A stretch of 49,842 bases of DNA, taken from positions 1-49,842 of the forward strand of contig CAYWAD010000002.1 in assembly GCA_964456045.1 (NCBI GenBank), written 5' to 3'. Below, piece after piece: positions 1,866-8,815 of this stretch. Positions within the stretch are counted from its first letter, which is position 1. Each line of letters begins with the position of its first letter. The notes under the pieces are model-generated. The model ran no database searches. It was not told the origin of the DNA and saw nothing but the letters and a program-made list of their open reading frames with translations. Both the position numbers and the translations under genes were made by a program. Source of the DNA: an uncultured Lachnospiraceae bacterium (lineage in GTDB: Bacteria; Bacillota; Clostridia; Oscillospirales; CAG-272).

Positions 1866-3293
1866 TTACTTAATGTAAGAATTGAGCAACTCGCCGTTTA
1901 CGCAACCGTAAATGGTATTGTTGATAACATAAATGGTTACGTGATACCATTCACCTACGGTGTAAGTATCGGAGATCTGAGTTGTATTGGAAAGTGTACC
2001 GTTTTCGCAGATCTGGAAGCAGGTAAGCGTGTTAGACCAACCGCCCTGGTTCCATCTTACATAGTTAGCGGCAGAAGGATCTTCCGCGTAGGAAACCGCG
2101 AAGTAAGGCATAAAGCCTTCAGCTCCGCTATCCTTGCGAGCATCAAATTCCATTACGTAGTTGTTCCAATCAGCATTAGCGATGGATTCGGTAAGAAGAA
2201 TTCCGCCGCCGGTGATGCTTGTGGATACGCACTGGAGAATTCCGCCGTGTTCGCCATCCTCATCTTCCGTCACCATCCAATCATCATGCCAGTCACCGTC
2301 GGAGGTTACATTTGCCCATGCACCGTCAGCCGCAACGTAGGATTCCCAATCGGAAAGATCTGTATCGGAGAAGTCATTTTCGTACATAACTTCACCTGTG
2401 AGGCAGCTCGTAACCTTGACATTGTCGATAGAGTAAGCTGTGCTCCAAGTACCGAATCCGATACCGCCGGTGTAAACTGCGGATTCATCAACCGTAGCAT
2501 AAACCTCGAAAAGCTGAGTACCTGCCACATAAAGAACGACTGTTTTAGCATTAAGAACGATACTTACGTTGACCCATTCGCCAACGGGAAGCACGTAGGA
2601 AAGGTCGATAGTATCAACGGAAGCCTTGCCGCCTTCAACATGAGTTACATTAACTTGGGAGTTTGTTCCGCCACCGAGGTTAACAACGTAATAGTTGTTT
2701 TCATCGGTGTAGCCGAAGTAGATCTGAGCGCCGCCGCAATCTTCGGAGAGCATGATCTTGGTTGTGAGCTGGATTCTGTTCCAGTCGGATCCGCCGAAAC
2801 GGAGAACACCGTCACCGGAGGTTGTAAGCGCCTTGTTAACCGGTTCGGTTTCTTCAGCTTCGGTTTCTTCATCGTCTTCAGCTTCTTCGGCTTCAGCTTC
2901 AACTTCTTCGGAAGGCTCATCTACAATAGACCAATCGGCAATATCGCCTACGATAGCCGTGAAATCGTCAAGGTTTGCGCCTTCGTCGTCAAATGTGTGT
3001 TCGAAAAGTGTGAGTTTGGTCTGGATGCCGACGCCCTTGACGTTGTCAAAGTAGATCTGACCGCCTGCGGAAGCGATTGCGAAATAGCCGCCGAAACTTG
3101 CGGTAGCATCGGGAACGTATTCTCTTTCGGTTGTACCTGAGTTGCCGCTGTCCGTGTTACCGGAATCACCCGAATCGGAAGCGTCCGCTGTATCCGGCGT
3201 GGGAACAGGAAGTTCCGGATCGTCCGAGCAGGATGCCAAGCAAAGCGGCACGAGCATACAAAGAGCAAGGATAATTGCTGTTATTTTTTTCAT
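1866..3293 (-). CDS. Lipoprotein with two ConA/LamG-like beta-sandwich modules separated by a poly-acidic linker
   Basis: 475 aa. Lipobox signal peptide MKKITAIILALCMLVPLCLASC; Asp/Ser/Gly-rich stalk; EEVEAEAEEAEDDEETEAEETE linker. The two halves share a W/Y-rich beta-rich pattern. The domain family is assigned by eye only. Confidence 0.7.
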   Translation of the reverse strand: MKKITAIILALCMLVPLCLASCSDDPELPVPTPDTADASDSGDSGNTDSGNSGTTEREYVPDATASFGGYFAIASAGGQIYFDNVKGVGIQTKLTLFEHTFDDEGANLDDFTAIVGDIADWSIVDEPSEEVEAEAEEAEDDEETEAEETEPVNKALTTSGDGVLRFGGSDWNRIQLTTKIMLSEDCGGAQIYFGYTDENNYYVVNLGGGTNSQVNVTHVEGGKASVDTIDLSYVLPVGEWVNVSIVLNAKTVVLYVAGTQLFEVYATVDESAVYTGGIGFGTWSTAYSIDNVKVTSCLTGEVMYENDFSDTDLSDWESYVAADGAWANVTSDGDWHDDWMVTEDEDGEHGGILQCVSTSITGGGILLTESIANADWNNYVMEFDARKDSGAEGFMPYFAVSYAEDPSAANYVRWNQGGWSNTLTCFQICENGTLSNTTQISDTYTVGEWYHVTIYVINNTIYGCVNGELLNSYIK

Positions 3294-3396: not shown

Positions 3397-4920
3397 TTAC
3401 ACGTCAATTTCCGAAAGTGCGCGACAATCCGATTTGATTTTATCGTAAAGGCACGTGTAAATTTCATGCAGTGCGGCATATTTTCTCACGTTTTCCGAAT
3501 CGGGCTCACAGACACTTTTTGTTTTCACGGTTGCGTCGCACGCCTCGCGGACGTTTGAGTAAAGTCCTGCTCCGACGCCGGCAAGCAACGCAGCGCCGAG
3601 CGCGCCGCCCTCGTTCGAAGCCGCCGTTTTGATCCTGCAACCGAAAACATCGGCAAGCATCTGCCTCCAAAGCGGACTTGACGCACCTCCGCCGCACGCC
3701 ATTATCTCATCAACGCTTATCCCAGCCTCGCCGAAAAGCAAGAGACTGTCGCGGAGCGCAAACGTCACGCCCTCCATAACAGCGCGAAGCATATCGTGGC
3801 GCGTGTGAATCGACGTAAGACCGATAAACGCTCCTTTGGCGAACGGATCAAGATGCGGAGTGCGTTCGCCCATCAAATACGGCAAGTAAAGCAGTCTGTT
3901 AGAGCCGACGGGAACTTTCGAGGCGTACTCGTCCATCACTTTGTATACATCCACACCTCTCGCATCAGCTTCCGACTGCTCCGCCGAACAAAAGTTGTCT
4001 CTGAACCAGCGCAGCGACAGCCCTGCCGACTGAATCACACCCATAACGTGCCATTCTCCGGGCACAGCGGCGCAAAAGCTGTGTATGCGTCCTTTAGGAT
4101 CGTACACAACGGTAGGACTGTGAGCGAAAACAACACCGCTCGTTCCGATCGTGGCAAACGCGCGTCCGCCAGAAACCGTTCCGCATCCAACAGCGGAAGC
4201 GGCATTGTCACCCGCCCCACCGACAACGGGAATTCCGACAGGCAGTCCCGTTTCTTCGGAGCACAATCTTGACACAGTTCCCGTTATATCCTGCGATTCA
4301 ACGACTTTTCCGAGCATAGACACGTCAATTTGAAGTTTTTCGAGCACCTCATCCGACCAATCGCGCTTCGCTATGTCAAGCAGTTGCATTCCGGACGCAT
4401 CCGAAACGTCGGTGGCAATCTCGCCCGTCAGCTTATAGCGTATATAATCCTTCGGCAAAAGTATCGTTTTACATTTGTCGTAGATTTCAGGCTCGTTTTC
4501 GCGCACCCACAAAATTTTCGACGCCGTGAACCCCGTGAGCGCAGGCGACATCGTGATCTCCATCAGCCTTTTCGCGCCTACAAGCTCAGTTATCTCGTCG
4601 CACTGCTTTGATGTGCGTTGATCGCACCAGATAATACTTTTGCGAAGGACTTCCCCGTCGCCGTCAAGCATAACAAGTCCGTGCATCTGCCCCGAAAGTC
4701 CGATCGAAACAATTTCCGTTTTGTCCACCTCTGCCGTGACAGACGCAATTCCGCGGCACGCAGCATCCCACCAGTCGTTCGGGTTCTGCTCCGCCCAGCC
4801 CGCGTGAGGCTGATACAACGGATACTCAACCGTCTCTGACGCAATTTTGGTGCCGTCCTCACGGAAAAGCACGGTTTTAGTCCCGGACGTTCCTACATCT
4901 ATTCCAATAATGTATGCCAT
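3397..4920 (-). CDS. xylB: Xylulokinase (FGGY carbohydrate kinase)
   Basis: 507 aa; MAYIIGIDVGTSGTKTVLF... N-terminal FGGY motif, and GGGASSPLWRQMLADVFG near the C-terminus is typical of XylB. There is no xylA in the window. Confidence 0.85.
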   Translation of the reverse strand: MAYIIGIDVGTSGTKTVLFREDGTKIASETVEYPLYQPHAGWAEQNPNDWWDAACRGIASVTAEVDKTEIVSIGLSGQMHGLVMLDGDGEVLRKSIIWCDQRTSKQCDEITELVGAKRLMEITMSPALTGFTASKILWVRENEPEIYDKCKTILLPKDYIRYKLTGEIATDVSDASGMQLLDIAKRDWSDEVLEKLQIDVSMLGKVVESQDITGTVSRLCSEETGLPVGIPVVGGAGDNAASAVGCGTVSGGRAFATIGTSGVVFAHSPTVVYDPKGRIHSFCAAVPGEWHVMGVIQSAGLSLRWFRDNFCSAEQSEADARGVDVYKVMDEYASKVPVGSNRLLYLPYLMGERTPHLDPFAKGAFIGLTSIHTRHDMLRAVMEGVTFALRDSLLLFGEAGISVDEIMACGGGASSPLWRQMLADVFGCRIKTAASNEGGALGAALLAGVGAGLYSNVREACDATVKTKSVCEPDSENVRKYAALHEIYTCLYDKIKSDCRALSEIDV

Positions 4921-4989: not shown

Positions 4990-5015
4990 ATACCGAAAAT
5001 TTCGGACATTATTTG

Positions 5016-7127
5016 TCATTTGCGGATAACGAATTCATACGCGATTCGAACTCTGTCACCCTCACCGTGCGAAAGCTGCACCGTGCCGCATTCTTCAAAT
5101 CCGTGACGTGACAGAAACGACTGCATAACGATGTTTCCTCTGTGCGTGTCCGCGCGAACGCTCTCCCTGCCGTCTGCTTCCGCAAACTTCAAAAGATACT
5201 CCACAAGAGCAGACGACGCTCCGCGGCCGCGGTAAGCTTCCGACGCGGAAACTCTGTGAATGACAGCGTAATTGTCCGTGTCCTTTTTCCATTCACCGTC
5301 GATTTCGGCGTAATCCGGCTCCGGCGGAGGCAAATACGTAGCCGCAGCCGCAATCCGTTCGGCTTCTTCGGCAACGTAAAGCGAATGCGCTTCAAGGTCC
5401 GCTTCCACAACCTCACGCGACGGATAGCCGTCCTGCCATTGGTCTATTCCAAGTTCTGCAATCGCCTTTCTTCCATCTGCGTACACCGCGAAAAGCTCAT
5501 CAAGATCCGTTTTATCCGCAAGGCGAAATGTGTAGCTCAGACGTTTGTTTTTTTTACGTTTTACGGCAACAAATATCGAATCCGCAAACAGAATTAAGAC
5601 AATCGCCGCAAACACCCAAACGAACAAGTTCCCTATGATCGAATAAAGCGTCCTCGTCGAGCGCATATAAACTTCGGACACGACGTAATTTTCCTCGTCT
5701 ATCGCGATTTCGTCAATGATTTCACCTGTTGGAGACAACACGCAGGTATAGCCTGTGTTCGCCGCACGCACAATGTAGCGATCTGTCTCAACGGCACGCA
5801 AAACCGCCTGCGCCGTATGCTGATACAGCGCCGCACTTTGACCGAACCACGAGTCGTTAGTCGAAATCGTCAAAAGCTCCGCGCCGTCGCGCACCGCGGC
5901 AAGCGAATATTCCTCGTAAATCGAATCAAAGCAGACAAGATTTCCGACCTTCCCGTAATCCGTCTCGGCAACGTAAGCGCCGTCGCCGGTGGAGACTGCG
6001 GACGAAAACATATCAAGACCCGCAAGCGGCGGAAAGACTTTTTTGACAAACGCCTCAAATGGGACAAACTCCCCAAACGGAACAAGCCTTTGCTTCCTGT
6101 ACACGCATTCGGTGTCGATACCGGACGTCGGTGACACGTTCAAAACCGCATTGTATGTATCTCCGTCGTCATCCCAGAACGAAGTTGCGAAGATCGTCAC
6201 GTCGGTTTCGGCAGCGAGACCTTCCACGAATCCCATCATGTACACGATCTTGTTGATCACGTACGGCAAGGTGGTTTCCGGCCACACAACAATTTCCGCG
6301 CCGTCCGCCGCGGCAGCATCGGTCAGCCGTTCGTACACATCGGAAACATTTGCATAGCCGTTGTCGCTCCATTTGTCCGCAGATGAGATATTGCCCTGCA
6401 AAGCCGCGATTGTCACGGCTTTTTCCTCACCACAGGCTGTATGTGTCGCGGAAACGATTCCGCCGAGCGCGAGATTTAAGGCAAATGTCGCGCACGCCAA
6501 ACTGAGCGAGACTATCGTCTTTGCGTTTTCGCGTTTGACCGCCCACAGCGCGGCAAGCGCCGCATATCCGTTGACAGCAACGATCACAAACGACACGAAA
6601 CACGATCCAAACAGTGACGCGGATCGCACAAATACAGGCGTATATGCCTGACCGATCGCAAGTCTGCCCCAAGGCACGCCTGCCCAGGTGAAAGTCTGAA
6701 GCCACTCAAAAACAGTGTATATCCCACCAAAAATGACAGGATAAAGCAGTTTTTTCGCAAATTTACTTCGAGCAACCGCAAGAAACAGTGGAACTTGAAG
6801 CATTGCGAACAACGCTTGGATCAGCGGAAGTCCGAGCCACGCCGCGACAACGGCGGCAAGCGCCGCAGGAGGTGTAAGTCCCGTAAAATCGAGCGGATAC
6901 ATCAGCAAAAACCAATGCCAAACCACTAAATAATACGGATAAAAGTACGCGAATCCGACAAAAAAGCCGCGCCGCGGAGACACTTCGGCTTTCGCAAGCC
7001 AAAATACGACCGTCAAAAACGGAACGAGAGCAAACCACTCCGCGGCGGCAGGCAAAAAGTATGAAACACAAAGTCCCGTAAGCACGCCCGACAGAGGCAA
7101 CAGTAAATAACACCACTTCTTTTTCAT
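5016..7127 (-). CDS. lnt: Apolipoprotein N-acyltransferase (Lnt, CN-hydrolase) fused to a C-terminal GNAT acetyltransferase domain
   Basis: Start chosen at ATG 7127 (MKKKWCYLLLP, GGAGAG upstream). Polytopic N-terminus, with the Lnt catalytic E/K/C contexts VVWPETTLP, YRKQRLVPFGEFVP and LVCFDSIYE, plus STNDSWFGQS. A last TM (LFVWVFAAIVLILFADSIFV) is followed by a ~170-aa GNAT-like domain (..VIHRVSASEAYRGRGASSALVEYLL..). Confidence 0.85.
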   Translation of the reverse strand: MKKKWCYLLLPLSGVLTGLCVSYFLPAAAEWFALVPFLTVVFWLAKAEVSPRRGFFVGFAYFYPYYLVVWHWFLLMYPLDFTGLTPPAALAAVVAAWLGLPLIQALFAMLQVPLFLAVARSKFAKKLLYPVIFGGIYTVFEWLQTFTWAGVPWGRLAIGQAYTPVFVRSASLFGSCFVSFVIVAVNGYAALAALWAVKRENAKTIVSLSLACATFALNLALGGIVSATHTACGEEKAVTIAALQGNISSADKWSDNGYANVSDVYERLTDAAAADGAEIVVWPETTLPYVINKIVYMMGFVEGLAAETDVTIFATSFWDDDGDTYNAVLNVSPTSGIDTECVYRKQRLVPFGEFVPFEAFVKKVFPPLAGLDMFSSAVSTGDGAYVAETDYGKVGNLVCFDSIYEEYSLAAVRDGAELLTISTNDSWFGQSAALYQHTAQAVLRAVETDRYIVRAANTGYTCVLSPTGEIIDEIAIDEENYVVSEVYMRSTRTLYSIIGNLFVWVFAAIVLILFADSIFVAVKRKKNKRLSYTFRLADKTDLDELFAVYADGRKAIAELGIDQWQDGYPSREVVEADLEAHSLYVAEEAERIAAAATYLPPPEPDYAEIDGEWKKDTDNYAVIHRVSASEAYRGRGASSALVEYLLKFAEADGRESVRADTHRGNIVMQSFLSRHGFEECGTVQLSHGEGDRVRIAYEFVIRK

Positions 7128-7149
7128 AGGCTCTCCAAAAGCAAAAAAT

Positions 7150-7184
7150 ATAAAAACACCGGAGAAGCGAGACGCTTCTCCGGT
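7150..7184 (-). terminator. Rho-independent terminator after the upp-rlu operon
   Basis: 12-bp stem ACCGGAGAAGCG / CGCTTCTCCGGT (7158-7169 / 7173-7184) with a 3-nt loop, followed on the minus strand by GTTTTTATATTTTTT. Confidence 0.8.
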
Positions 7185-7202
7185 ACGCAAATTTTGATTA
7201 AA

Positions 7203-8192
7203 TTACTTTGCGTCTTTGAATTCACGCATAAAGTCAACAGTTTTCAAATCTATCGAAAAGCTCTTGCCGTTAAGATACGCAAGCTCTCCGTCATATCCAC
7301 CGAGGCAAAACTCGATTTTGTACGCACAAAGCGCCTGTGAACGATACCCTTTCGTCCTGTCCGCGAAGTTTTTGCCGTAGCGCCCCTCGCCGAGAAGCGG
7401 CCATCCGCAATGCTCCATGTGAGCGCGGATCTGGTGGGTACGTCCGGTAACCAGTTCGATTTCGCAAAGCGAAAGCGCGTCCTCGCCTACTCCGACAGTC
7501 TTCAGCCGTTTATATTTCGTGACGATAGGCTTCGCTCCGGGCACGTTTTTGTCATACACACGGACACCTCCCGCGTTTTCGCGACGAAGATACGCTTCAA
7601 GCGTAGCAGACGTCGGATTCGGCTTGCCGTGAACGGCGCAAAGGTAAATTTTCTTTACCAAATGTTCCTTAATGATAAAATTCATTTCGCGAAGCGCCGC
7701 CGCGTTTTTCGCCGCGATAACAAGTCCGCGAGTGTTTCTGTCTATGCGATTGCAAAGCGCGGGCGCAAACGTATTTTCGCAAAGCGGATTGTACTCGCCG
7801 CGTCCGTAAAGATACGCCTGAATATGCCCAATGAGCGTGTTTTTGTCGTTCGACGCTTCACCGTCCGCATCGCCGGAATGCACCAGCACTCCGACAGGCT
7901 TATCGCATATAATGATATTATCATCCTCGTAAACGACAGTAAGCTTAGGTTTGATCGAGGCAATTGCGATATTTTCGTCCGAATCCGAAAAAAATTCATC
8001 GCTGATAAAAAGCTTTATCTCGTCCCCGACGTTAAGCATCAAAGACGGATCCGCCTTTTTGCCGTTGACCTTGACGCATTTCTGACGTATGTACTTATAC
8101 AAAAGCGACTTCGGCATTCCGACAGTCGCCTTTGCGAGGAACTTATCAAGACGTTGACCGCCATCGTTGACTCCAACGGTAAGAAGGCGCAT
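7203..8192 (-). CDS. RluA/RluD-family 23S rRNA pseudouridine synthase with N-terminal S4 domain
   Basis: 329 aa. S4-like N-terminus (RLDKFLAK...), catalytic-loop motif NRIDRNTRGLV, and C-terminal GRTHQIRAH. Confidence 0.85.
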   Translation of the reverse strand: MRLLTVGVNDGGQRLDKFLAKATVGMPKSLLYKYIRQKCVKVNGKKADPSLMLNVGDEIKLFISDEFFSDSDENIAIASIKPKLTVVYEDDNIIICDKPVGVLVHSGDADGEASNDKNTLIGHIQAYLYGRGEYNPLCENTFAPALCNRIDRNTRGLVIAAKNAAALREMNFIIKEHLVKKIYLCAVHGKPNPTSATLEAYLRRENAGGVRVYDKNVPGAKPIVTKYKRLKTVGVGEDALSLCEIELVTGRTHQIRAHMEHCGWPLLGEGRYGKNFADRTKGYRSQALCAYKIEFCLGGYDGELAYLNGKSFSIDLKTVDFMREFKDAK

Positions 8193-8815
8193 CAGATAGT
8201 GCCGAAAATTCTGTCGCCGGCGTCGCCGAGGCCGGGAACGATATACTTATCCTCGTTGAGGCATTCGTCAACCGCTGCGATATAAAGATCAACATCCGGA
8301 TGAACTTCCTCAAGATATTTAATACCTTCGGGAGCGCCTACAAGACACATAAGTCTGATCTGCTTGCAGCCCTGATTCTTCAAAATCGTGATGGAATCAA
8401 CCGCGCTGCCGCCCGTTGCGAGCATCGGATCGGAAAGAACAACAAGTCGGGAAGCGATGTCTTCGGGAAGCTTGCTGTAATAAAGCACAGGCTGATGAGT
8501 TTCATGATCTCTGTAAAGACCGATGTGGCCTACCTTTGCTGCGGGAACTATCTTCAAAAATCCGTCCGACATGCCGAGGCCGGCGCGAAGGATCGGAACG
8601 ATCGCAAGCTTTTTGCCCGACAGCTGCTTTGCATTCATTTTGCAGATGGGCGTTTCGATTTCATACTCCTCAAGAGAAAGGTCTCTCGTGATTTCGTATG
8701 ACATAAGCATGGATATTTCGTAAAGAAGCTCTCGGAATTCCTTTGTTCCCGTGTTCTTATCACGCATAATGGAAAGCTTATGGGTAATAAGCGGGTGGTC
8801 TATTACATGTACCAT
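8192..8815 (-). CDS. upp: Uracil phosphoribosyltransferase
   Basis: 207 aa; [20 protein letters not shown]...; PRPP-binding [13 protein letters not shown]; C-terminal [16 protein letters not shown]. Confidence 0.95.

Follow-up and report, generated by a model that had tools for sequence, protein, structure and literature searches.

A canonical apolipoprotein N-acyltransferase joined to a cytoplasmic GNAT domain within one Clostridia genus, probably through merger of neighbouring genes

Here we analyse a stretch of 49,842 nucleotides from an uncultured Lachnospiraceae bacterium (GTDB lineage Bacteria; Bacillota; Clostridia; Oscillospirales; CAG-272; GenBank assembly GCA_964456045.1, contig CAYWAD010000002.1, positions 1 to 49,842 of the forward strand), referred to below as the window, and in particular a minus-strand gene encoding an apolipoprotein N-acyltransferase (Lnt) that runs into an acetyltransferase domain of the GNAT type. 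The coding sequence, lnt::GNAT, occupies 5016..7127 as a single open frame of 703 codons, with an ATG at 7127, a GGAGAG ribosome-binding site 4 nt upstream of it and a TGA stop at 5016-5018. A longer frame from an alternative TTG start at 7190 would cross a terminator-like hairpin, and homologues start at MKKK. The protein begins with the Lnt membrane domain (residues 1-235; 6423..7127), comprising seven transmembrane (TM) helices according to Pfam LNT_N, the helices of an AlphaFold2 (AF2) model, the Lys/Arg (K/R) distribution and superposition on E. coli Lnt. It continues with an extracytoplasmic nitrilase-like (CN-hydrolase) domain recognised by Pfam and the alignment of its catalytic triad (residues 236-491; 5655..6422) and with TM8, which according to AF2 and the K/R distribution brings the chain back to the cytoplasm (residues 499-527; 5547..5633). 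A five-residue linker, identified as the former gene boundary by junction alignment and AF2 (residues 528-532; 5532..5546), leads into the predicted cytoplasmic GNAT domain, which resembles PDB entry 2pc1 and carries the motifs DQWQ-GYP, HR, RGRGAS and DTHRGN (residues 533-703; 5019..5531).

Judged by sequence, residues 1-527 constitute a genuine, canonical Lnt. Pfam assigns LNT_N to residues 14-187 and CN_hydrolase to residues 239-491 (E 6e-31), both above their gathering scores, and the curated equivalog model TIGR00546 'lnt' of NCBIfam is matched with 256.8 bits against a cut-off of 132.9. The protein shares with the E. coli and P. aeruginosa enzymes (TIGR00546; 5N6H, 5VRG, 5XHQ, 8B0P) the arrangement of eight TM helices in which TM7 and TM8 flank the nitrilase-like domain, in agreement with the eight TM segments and periplasmic nitrilase domain described for Lnt structures (PMC6828757). 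The full-length AF2 model, built from 108 aligned sequences (predicted local distance difference test, pLDDT, 94.6; predicted TM-score, pTM, 0.89), has seven helices ahead of the nitrilase domain, one long helix (501-527) behind it and the first GNAT strand at residue 533. In a Foldseek search with this model, the E. coli and P. aeruginosa Lnts rank first, with target-normalised TM-scores of 0.81-0.87 over approximately 530 columns, the best fold match being E. coli Lnt 8b0p (0.87). In the alignment, E284, K345 and C399 (codons 6276-6278, 6093-6095 and 5931-5933, minus strand) stand opposite E267, K335 and C387 of E. coli Lnt (5vrg), and this E-K-C triad is invariant across 60 Clostridia Lnts. 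The conserved Trp and second Glu are also kept, as W253 and E353 (E. coli W237 and E343), whereas C399 is followed by F400-D401 where the E. coli enzyme has Y388-E389, F and D being invariant in the Clostridia clade. In the E. coli enzyme, W237, E343, Y388 and E389 are reported to be essential. Further differences from E. coli Lnt are the sequence identity of about 24%, the host and the 176 additional C-terminal residues that constitute the GNAT. As in E. coli, the enzymes acting ahead of Lnt are encoded, here by two Lgt genes and one LspA gene of the same genome; the two Lgt paralogues (G000:C9:2579-3334, L095, and G000:C44:10607-11308, L096) score 221.9 and 125.7 bits, above the Pfam cut-off.

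K/R account for 14 of the 44 residues in the short segments predicted to be cytoplasmic, compared to 2 of 42 in the short external loops, and a K/R-rich stretch, KRKKNKR, directly follows TM8. Since the position of TM8 in the AF2 model, the eight-TM superposition on E. coli Lnt and these positive-inside counts agree, the nitrilase domain is predicted to face outward and the GNAT domain to be cytoplasmic, i.e. the two lie on opposite faces of the membrane. The tether connecting them would be very short, approximately five residues, as the TM8 helix ends at residue 527 and the first GNAT strand starts at 533. An earlier note on this DNA, made from the letters alone, had described one open reading frame (ORF) consisting of Lnt, a final TM helix and a complete GNAT placed across the membrane from the nitrilase domain. 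Pfam, TIGR00546 and AF2 agree on this architecture, the catalytic contexts quoted in the note hold the three triad residues, and its topology is the one supported here.

The GNAT half is likewise well defined. Pfam Acetyltransf_1 (PF00583) is matched at residues 564-677 (E 2.8e-11; 44.1 bits against a gathering cut-off of 20.7), the sequence match to 2pc1 extends over the whole domain (E 3.7e-21), and the domain model (pLDDT 97.2) superposes on 2pc1 with a TM-score of 0.88-0.90, which bears out the fold that had been expected of this region. The nearest solved structures, 2pc1, 3h4q and 2fia, are structural-genomics entries in which no substrate is named. The small GNATs 2pc1 and 3h4q, from Streptococcus agalactiae and Staphylococcus aureus, share the DQWQ-GYP, HR, RG-G and DTH-N motifs with the window protein, but are free soluble proteins, and PDB titles and family libraries give no substrate for any member. 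All seven family-invariant residues are retained (Q563, W564, P569, D577, H624, T661 and G681). Motif A, which binds the pyrophosphate of acyl-coenzyme A (acyl-CoA), R/Q-x-x-G-x-G/A, reads R633-G-R-G636-A-S638, with Ser in the last position where most of the family has Ala, a substitution between small residues. Among fused orthologues, the ratio of nonsynonymous to synonymous substitution rates (dN/dS) is 0.13-0.25 for the GNAT and 0.07-0.25 for the Lnt parts. Because dS is saturated in most pairs, only the closest pairs are informative, and the least saturated one gives 0.17 for the GNAT compared to 0.09-0.11 for the Lnt parts. With the family-invariant residues, the CoA loop and low dN/dS all retained, the domain is a maintained and probably active enzyme under purifying selection, rather than a decaying remnant. 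NCBIfam holds no specific family for it, NCBIfam and ESM Atlas labels being the generic 'GNAT family', and the Pfam and NCBIfam scans gave no match of the GNAT to a lipid-handling family and no glycosyltransferase domain of the family 2 (GT2) polyprenol-phosphate-mannose (Ppm) synthase type at the C-terminus, the C-terminal domain being the GNAT.

An exhaustive HMMER scan over 1.84 billion representatives places the domain in a family of 1772 clusters (50% identity; E<=1e-10). Most members are free-standing, about 170-190 residues long, and most come from Bacillota. The family is found fused to a range of other partners, comprising RluA-type pseudouridine synthases, TrmD, an S-adenosylmethionine-dependent methyltransferase, an aldo-keto reductase with ferredoxin domains, mannitol dehydrogenase, a cyclase, DUF3267 and a second GNAT. 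Fusion to PseudoU_synth_2 is seen in approximately 13 of the 80 best loci, and the combination of this GNAT with an RNA-modification enzyme is a recurrent architecture. The loci and clusters concerned are L037, L039, L043, L046, L049, L058, L062, L063, L064, L069, L079, L082 and L087, with the GNAT at the N-terminus of ORFs of about 400-460 residues, along with P0162, P0273 and P0274; the GNAT precedes an S4-less RluA-type synthase domain or, in two clusters, is fused to TrmD. We also considered the pseudouridine synthase gene adjacent to lnt::GNAT in the window as the true partner of the GNAT and rejected it: the PseudoU_synth_2 fusion partner is of the distant S4-less RluA type, matching the window's RluD-like gene at E about 1e-22, and an RluD orthologue is nearby in only 2 of 75 free-GNAT loci. 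In two loci from other Clostridia (L052:5836-9810 and L055:6001-9916), a free GNAT lies about 2.2 kb upstream of an RluD orthologue, in the same direction.

The gene neighbourhood of lnt::GNAT is informative on how the fusion came about. Upstream and co-directional are upp (8192-8815) and an S4/RluD-type pseudouridine synthase gene (7203-8192), together spanning 7203..8815, and downstream lies a gene for an FGGY-family sugar kinase (3397..4920), all on the minus strand. The order upp, pseudouridine synthase, lnt::GNAT, kinase occurs in all fused genes, and the upstream synteny is kept with fused, split and GNAT-less lnt alike. Four metagenomic relatives have the same order with lnt and GNAT as separate genes. 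The two are divided by 33 nt in L092/L093, where a separate GGAGGAGG ribosome-binding site precedes the GNAT gene and GTG serves as its start, and by 1 nt in L091; they overlap by 4 nt on the P0017 contig and through an ATGA stop/start in L108. None of the split-form GNATs carries a membrane anchor. In the GNAT-less congeners L008, L009 and L094, the order is again the same and lnt runs straight into the kinase gene; since lnt directly abuts or overlaps the kinase gene there, the GNAT gene is best seen as an insertion between the two. The split-form Lnt C-termini (…IYNKMKKK-stop) are homologous to the sequence preceding the linker in one fused clade, and the linkers vary in length and sequence between fused clades while being homologous within them. 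The Lnt of one split-form lineage (L092:2035-3837, protein P0019) contains, at residues ~55-118, a low-complexity insert of about 60 residues rich in Glu, Lys and Ser in the cytoplasmic TM2-TM3 loop, which is missing from all other Lnt homologues.

Phylogenies are in line with a single origin of the lnt-GNAT association. The 16 lnt-linked GNATs (14 fused and 2 split) form one clade among the free GNATs, with a support of 97 in the Shimodaira-Hasegawa-like approximate likelihood-ratio test (SH-aLRT), and the closest relative not linked to lnt adjoins hprK. A quick Lnt tree requires two changes, at a node that a more careful tree turns into a polytomy; in the latter, every GNAT carrier falls to the same side of a branch that has weak support, and a single clade of fused forms is not rejected by the approximately unbiased (AU) test (p 0.337). 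The association between lnt and the GNAT arose only once, and the fusion probably within one genus. The simplest history is one capture of a free GNAT gene between lnt and the kinase gene followed by at least one loss of a stop codon, or else by a fusion combined with a fission.

Among 5.8 billion proteins searched, 14 clusters contain the fusion; their identity is 55-100%, and the underlying assemblies stem from NCBI, ENA and Logan. The 13 clusters beyond the window protein (700-722 residues; 55-70% identity) have the same four Pfam domains, and the next matches are ordinary Lnts of 520-600 residues from Clostridia metagenome-assembled genomes (MAGs) at no more than 58% identity. In the species-representative genomes of the genus, Lnt is present in 19 of 19, in the fused form and free of internal stops in seven, and unaccompanied by a GNAT in the remaining 12. 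Searching genome contigs with the GNAT region, five of the 80 best loci are lnt-fused, all from the window's genus, and for the other 75 there is no lnt within 6 kb; the HMMER scan shows one Lnt-fused representative among its best 150. The contig search, the HMMER scan and a word-based search of long proteins revealed no Lnt-GNAT architecture outside this clade, and we found no published description of the fusion.

Lnt itself is a minority trait in Clostridia that is fixed in the window's genus, as it scores above cut-off in 16 of 301 genomes sampled evenly from the class, compared to all 19 in the genus. In the class sample, it is clustered in few families (e.g. eight of eight genomes in f25, and three f42 genomes), and this concentration suggests several Lnt-positive monoderm Clostridia lineages rather than sporadic contamination. 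The host of the window is most likely monoderm as well, as a search of five genomes from the genus revealed no Omp85/BamA. That low-GC Gram-positives generally lack Lnt, as the earlier note had it, is thus broadly correct, in agreement with the class sample and with reviews describing Firmicutes as devoid of the enzyme (PMC7530257, PMC3850990). The generalization does not extend to this genus, where Lnt is universal, and public annotation already assigns Lnt to many such Clostridia MAG proteins. We found no literature describing Lnt in Clostridia.

Based on these comparisons, we favour as the probable explanation that the protein combines a canonical Lnt and an independent cytoplasmic acetyltransferase, tethered to each other through stop-codon loss in a lineage-specific merger of neighbouring genes. 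By homology, Cys399, together with Glu284 and Lys345, would at the outer face accept an acyl chain from a phospholipid of the membrane, forming a thioester. Lipoproteins already processed by Lgt and LspA would then receive the chain on the free alpha-amino group of their diacylglyceryl-cysteine, yielding triacylated lipoproteins in a monoderm Clostridia bacterium. Residues 533-703 would operate as a complete GNAT of the acetyl-CoA type, which the five-residue tether keeps at the inner face, most likely, judging from context, N-acetylating a cytoplasmic small molecule or protein, separate from lipoprotein maturation. A free GNAT gene would have been inserted between lnt and the kinase gene, with the stop codon of the abutting genes subsequently lost in some descendants. 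The gain from the fusion would then be 1:1 co-expression and membrane tethering without a new reaction.

The earlier note had suggested that the fusion points to a coupled or alternative acylation chemistry. Such coupling is unsupported, because the GNATs of the split forms are unanchored and soluble, 12 of 19 congeners have no GNAT, the association has a single origin and Lnt shows no clade-specific adaptation; the GNAT family is, in addition, prone to fusion. Compared to other Clostridia Lnts, those of GNAT carriers differ by three clade-specific conserved substitutions, none of them cytoplasmic or at the triad, and the sequences thus give no sign of co-adaptation between Lnt and the GNAT. 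Synteny says little on function here, because the surrounding genes (upp, rluD and the sugar kinase gene) are equally conserved and plainly unrelated in function. Several observations nevertheless weigh against two independent enzymes. The lnt-GNAT link, fused or translationally coupled, is retained down to about 47-50% identity (about 47% for the GNAT). This retention would be compatible with a functional link as well, and so would a tether so short that it keeps the GNAT fixed at the membrane surface. The high pTM of the full-length model may reflect a fixed orientation of the GNAT relative to Lnt. As for the Lnt half being canonical, F-D replaces, albeit conservatively, two residues after the catalytic cysteine that are reported to be essential in E. 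coli. A complex prediction for a split pair (Lnt P0019 and GNAT P0270), run without controls, gave no support, with a score of 0.00 against a mark of 0.32, and carries no weight in either direction as to binding.

The earlier note also raised, as pure hypothesis, a link to N-acetyl or N-acyl lipoproteins, which has to be weighed against the pathway reported from Bacillus in 2025, the sole precedent for lipoprotein N-modification served by an acetyltransferase of the cytoplasm. In that pathway, PcrB and YvoF produce acetyl-heptaprenylglycerol in the cytosol, and LhaT, a membrane protein of the DUF1405 family, moves the acetyl group onto the N-terminus of the lipoprotein (PMC12345273). Because this pathway lets a cytoplasmic acetyltransferase act on extracytoplasmic lipoproteins via a lipid carrier, we retain, by analogy, the unlikely case that the tethered GNAT charges an inner-leaflet lipid with an acetyl or short acyl group for use by Lnt. 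Monoderm bacteria without PcrB/LhaT would then have another way, based on Lnt, of making N-acetyl or short-acyl lipoproteins; more broadly, the GNAT would be a dedicated cytoplasmic partner of Lnt, comparable to the Ppm synthase of mycobacteria. Spelled out as a shuttle, the GNAT would transfer the acetyl or short acyl moiety from acyl-CoA to a lipid in the membrane, and this lipid, once across, would act as donor for the Lnt domain. Both systems would share a cytoplasmic acetyl-CoA-dependent transferase coupled to an outward membrane enzyme that modifies the lipoprotein alpha-amine. The Bacillus route also appears unoccupied in the genus: LhaT (DUF1405, PF07187) had no match in the window's own genome (67% complete) and four congeners (96-98% complete), and PcrB (PF01884) none above cut-off in the same five. 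The five-residue tether, the confident model and the conserved lnt-GNAT linkage are compatible with a shuttle, too. However, the Bacillus enzymes belong to other families, neither Lnt nor GNAT, and require a heptaprenylglyceryl carrier; the GNAT is soluble in sister lineages, the majority of congeners possess Lnt but no such GNAT, the association has a single origin, and no clade-specific Lnt change lies near the active site or the lipid entry. Moreover, GNATs normally form amides and Lnt requires an ester-linked donor. We therefore regard the shuttle as distinctly unlikely.

A tightly tethered GNAT could alternatively serve the inner leaflet itself, acylating or acetylating an amine lipid or lysophospholipid there, e.g. 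in disposal or re-use of the lysolipid by-product of Lnt or in N-acylation of lipids of the phosphatidylethanolamine type. Lnt frees one lysophospholipid per turnover (PMC6828757), and the genes are kept co-transcribed or fused. Yet the soluble split forms, the GNAT-less congeners and the single origin speak against such a role as much as against the shuttle, no lipid-handling family is matched, and its closest relatives are small GNATs of the ordinary soluble kind, encoded in unrelated settings, such as the one beside hprK, which leaves this quite unlikely. It is very unlikely that the GNAT is a regulatory domain, sensing acetyl-CoA or acetylating lysines of Lnt or of a partner and thereby tuning lipoprotein N-acylation to the metabolic state. 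Although the lysine-rich KRKKNKR lies immediately beside the GNAT, and bacterial GNAT lysine acetyltransferases exist (e.g. PDB 4ava, a weak match to the domain), the K/R cluster is also present in Lnts without a GNAT, representing a normal positive-inside signal, no regulatory domain accompanies the GNAT, and Lnt shows no evidence of co-adaptation. Finally, the earlier note had named an assembly or frameshift artefact joining two genes as one outcome that would undo its reading. The genome is indeed a fragmented MAG of 233 contigs, and relatives do have truly split forms, but 14 clusters stemming from separate projects, as well as seven of the 19 species genomes, have the same in-frame fusion without stops. 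The linkers are homologous within clades, and the domains flanking the junction are under purifying selection. An artefact is hence excluded for practical purposes, its probability being negligible.

The architecture finds its closest precedent in mycobacteria. In M. tuberculosis and BCG, Ppm1 (Rv2051c, BCG_2070c) is a fusion of Lnt with a polyprenol-phosphate-mannose synthase that lies in the cytoplasm, and in M. smegmatis and C. glutamicum the Lnt and Ppm synthase genes are adjacent and separate (PMC3850990). In both systems, the Lnt C-terminus runs into a cytoplasmic enzyme domain and the pair occurs fused or split among relatives. The Ppm1 partner, however, is a glycosyltransferase of family GT2 known to be linked to lipoprotein glycosylation, whereas the partner described here is a GNAT, its fusion occurs in only some members of one genus, and nothing evident ties it to a pathway. 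The fusion described here thus represents a second example of the cytoplasmic C-terminus of Lnt as a docking point for another enzyme, and the series of fused, split and GNAT-less forms in one genus provides a clean natural experiment on the role of the partner in lipoprotein maturation. If that partner is irrelevant to maturation, as we hold most likely, the locus is a cautionary case of a conserved 'Rosetta-stone' fusion arising from mere adjacency, in an operon of functionally unrelated genes. Independently of the GNAT, the occurrence of a full Lnt in monoderm gut Clostridia runs contrary to the reviews that deny Firmicutes the enzyme (PMC7530257, PMC3850990). Because the gene encodes a full Lnt in such a lineage, its lipoproteins are probably triacylated, which, if true, would alter how host Toll-like receptor 2 (TLR2) heterodimers see these abundant gut bacteria.

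Expression of lnt::GNAT may depend on the genes ahead of it. The interval from the rluD stop (7203) to the lnt start (7127) contains a GC-rich hairpin of 14 bp, eight of them GC pairs, followed by a T-run (7156..7186, minus strand), and no promoter-like site was found between the hairpin and the lnt ATG. As this strong terminator-like element precedes the gene without a promoter-like site after it, lnt::GNAT is probably transcribed by read-through from the upp-rluD unit, perhaps solely so, which could be a means of holding Lnt levels low. A look-up of sequencing runs matching 5000-7300 listed none. Two genes downstream of lnt::GNAT, 2 kb away and on the same strand, a 475-residue protein (1866-3293) is encoded that carries a signal peptide. 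As this peptide ends in the lipobox L-A-S-C, the protein is a likely substrate of Lnt. An orthologue of it also follows the kinase gene in L092/L093.

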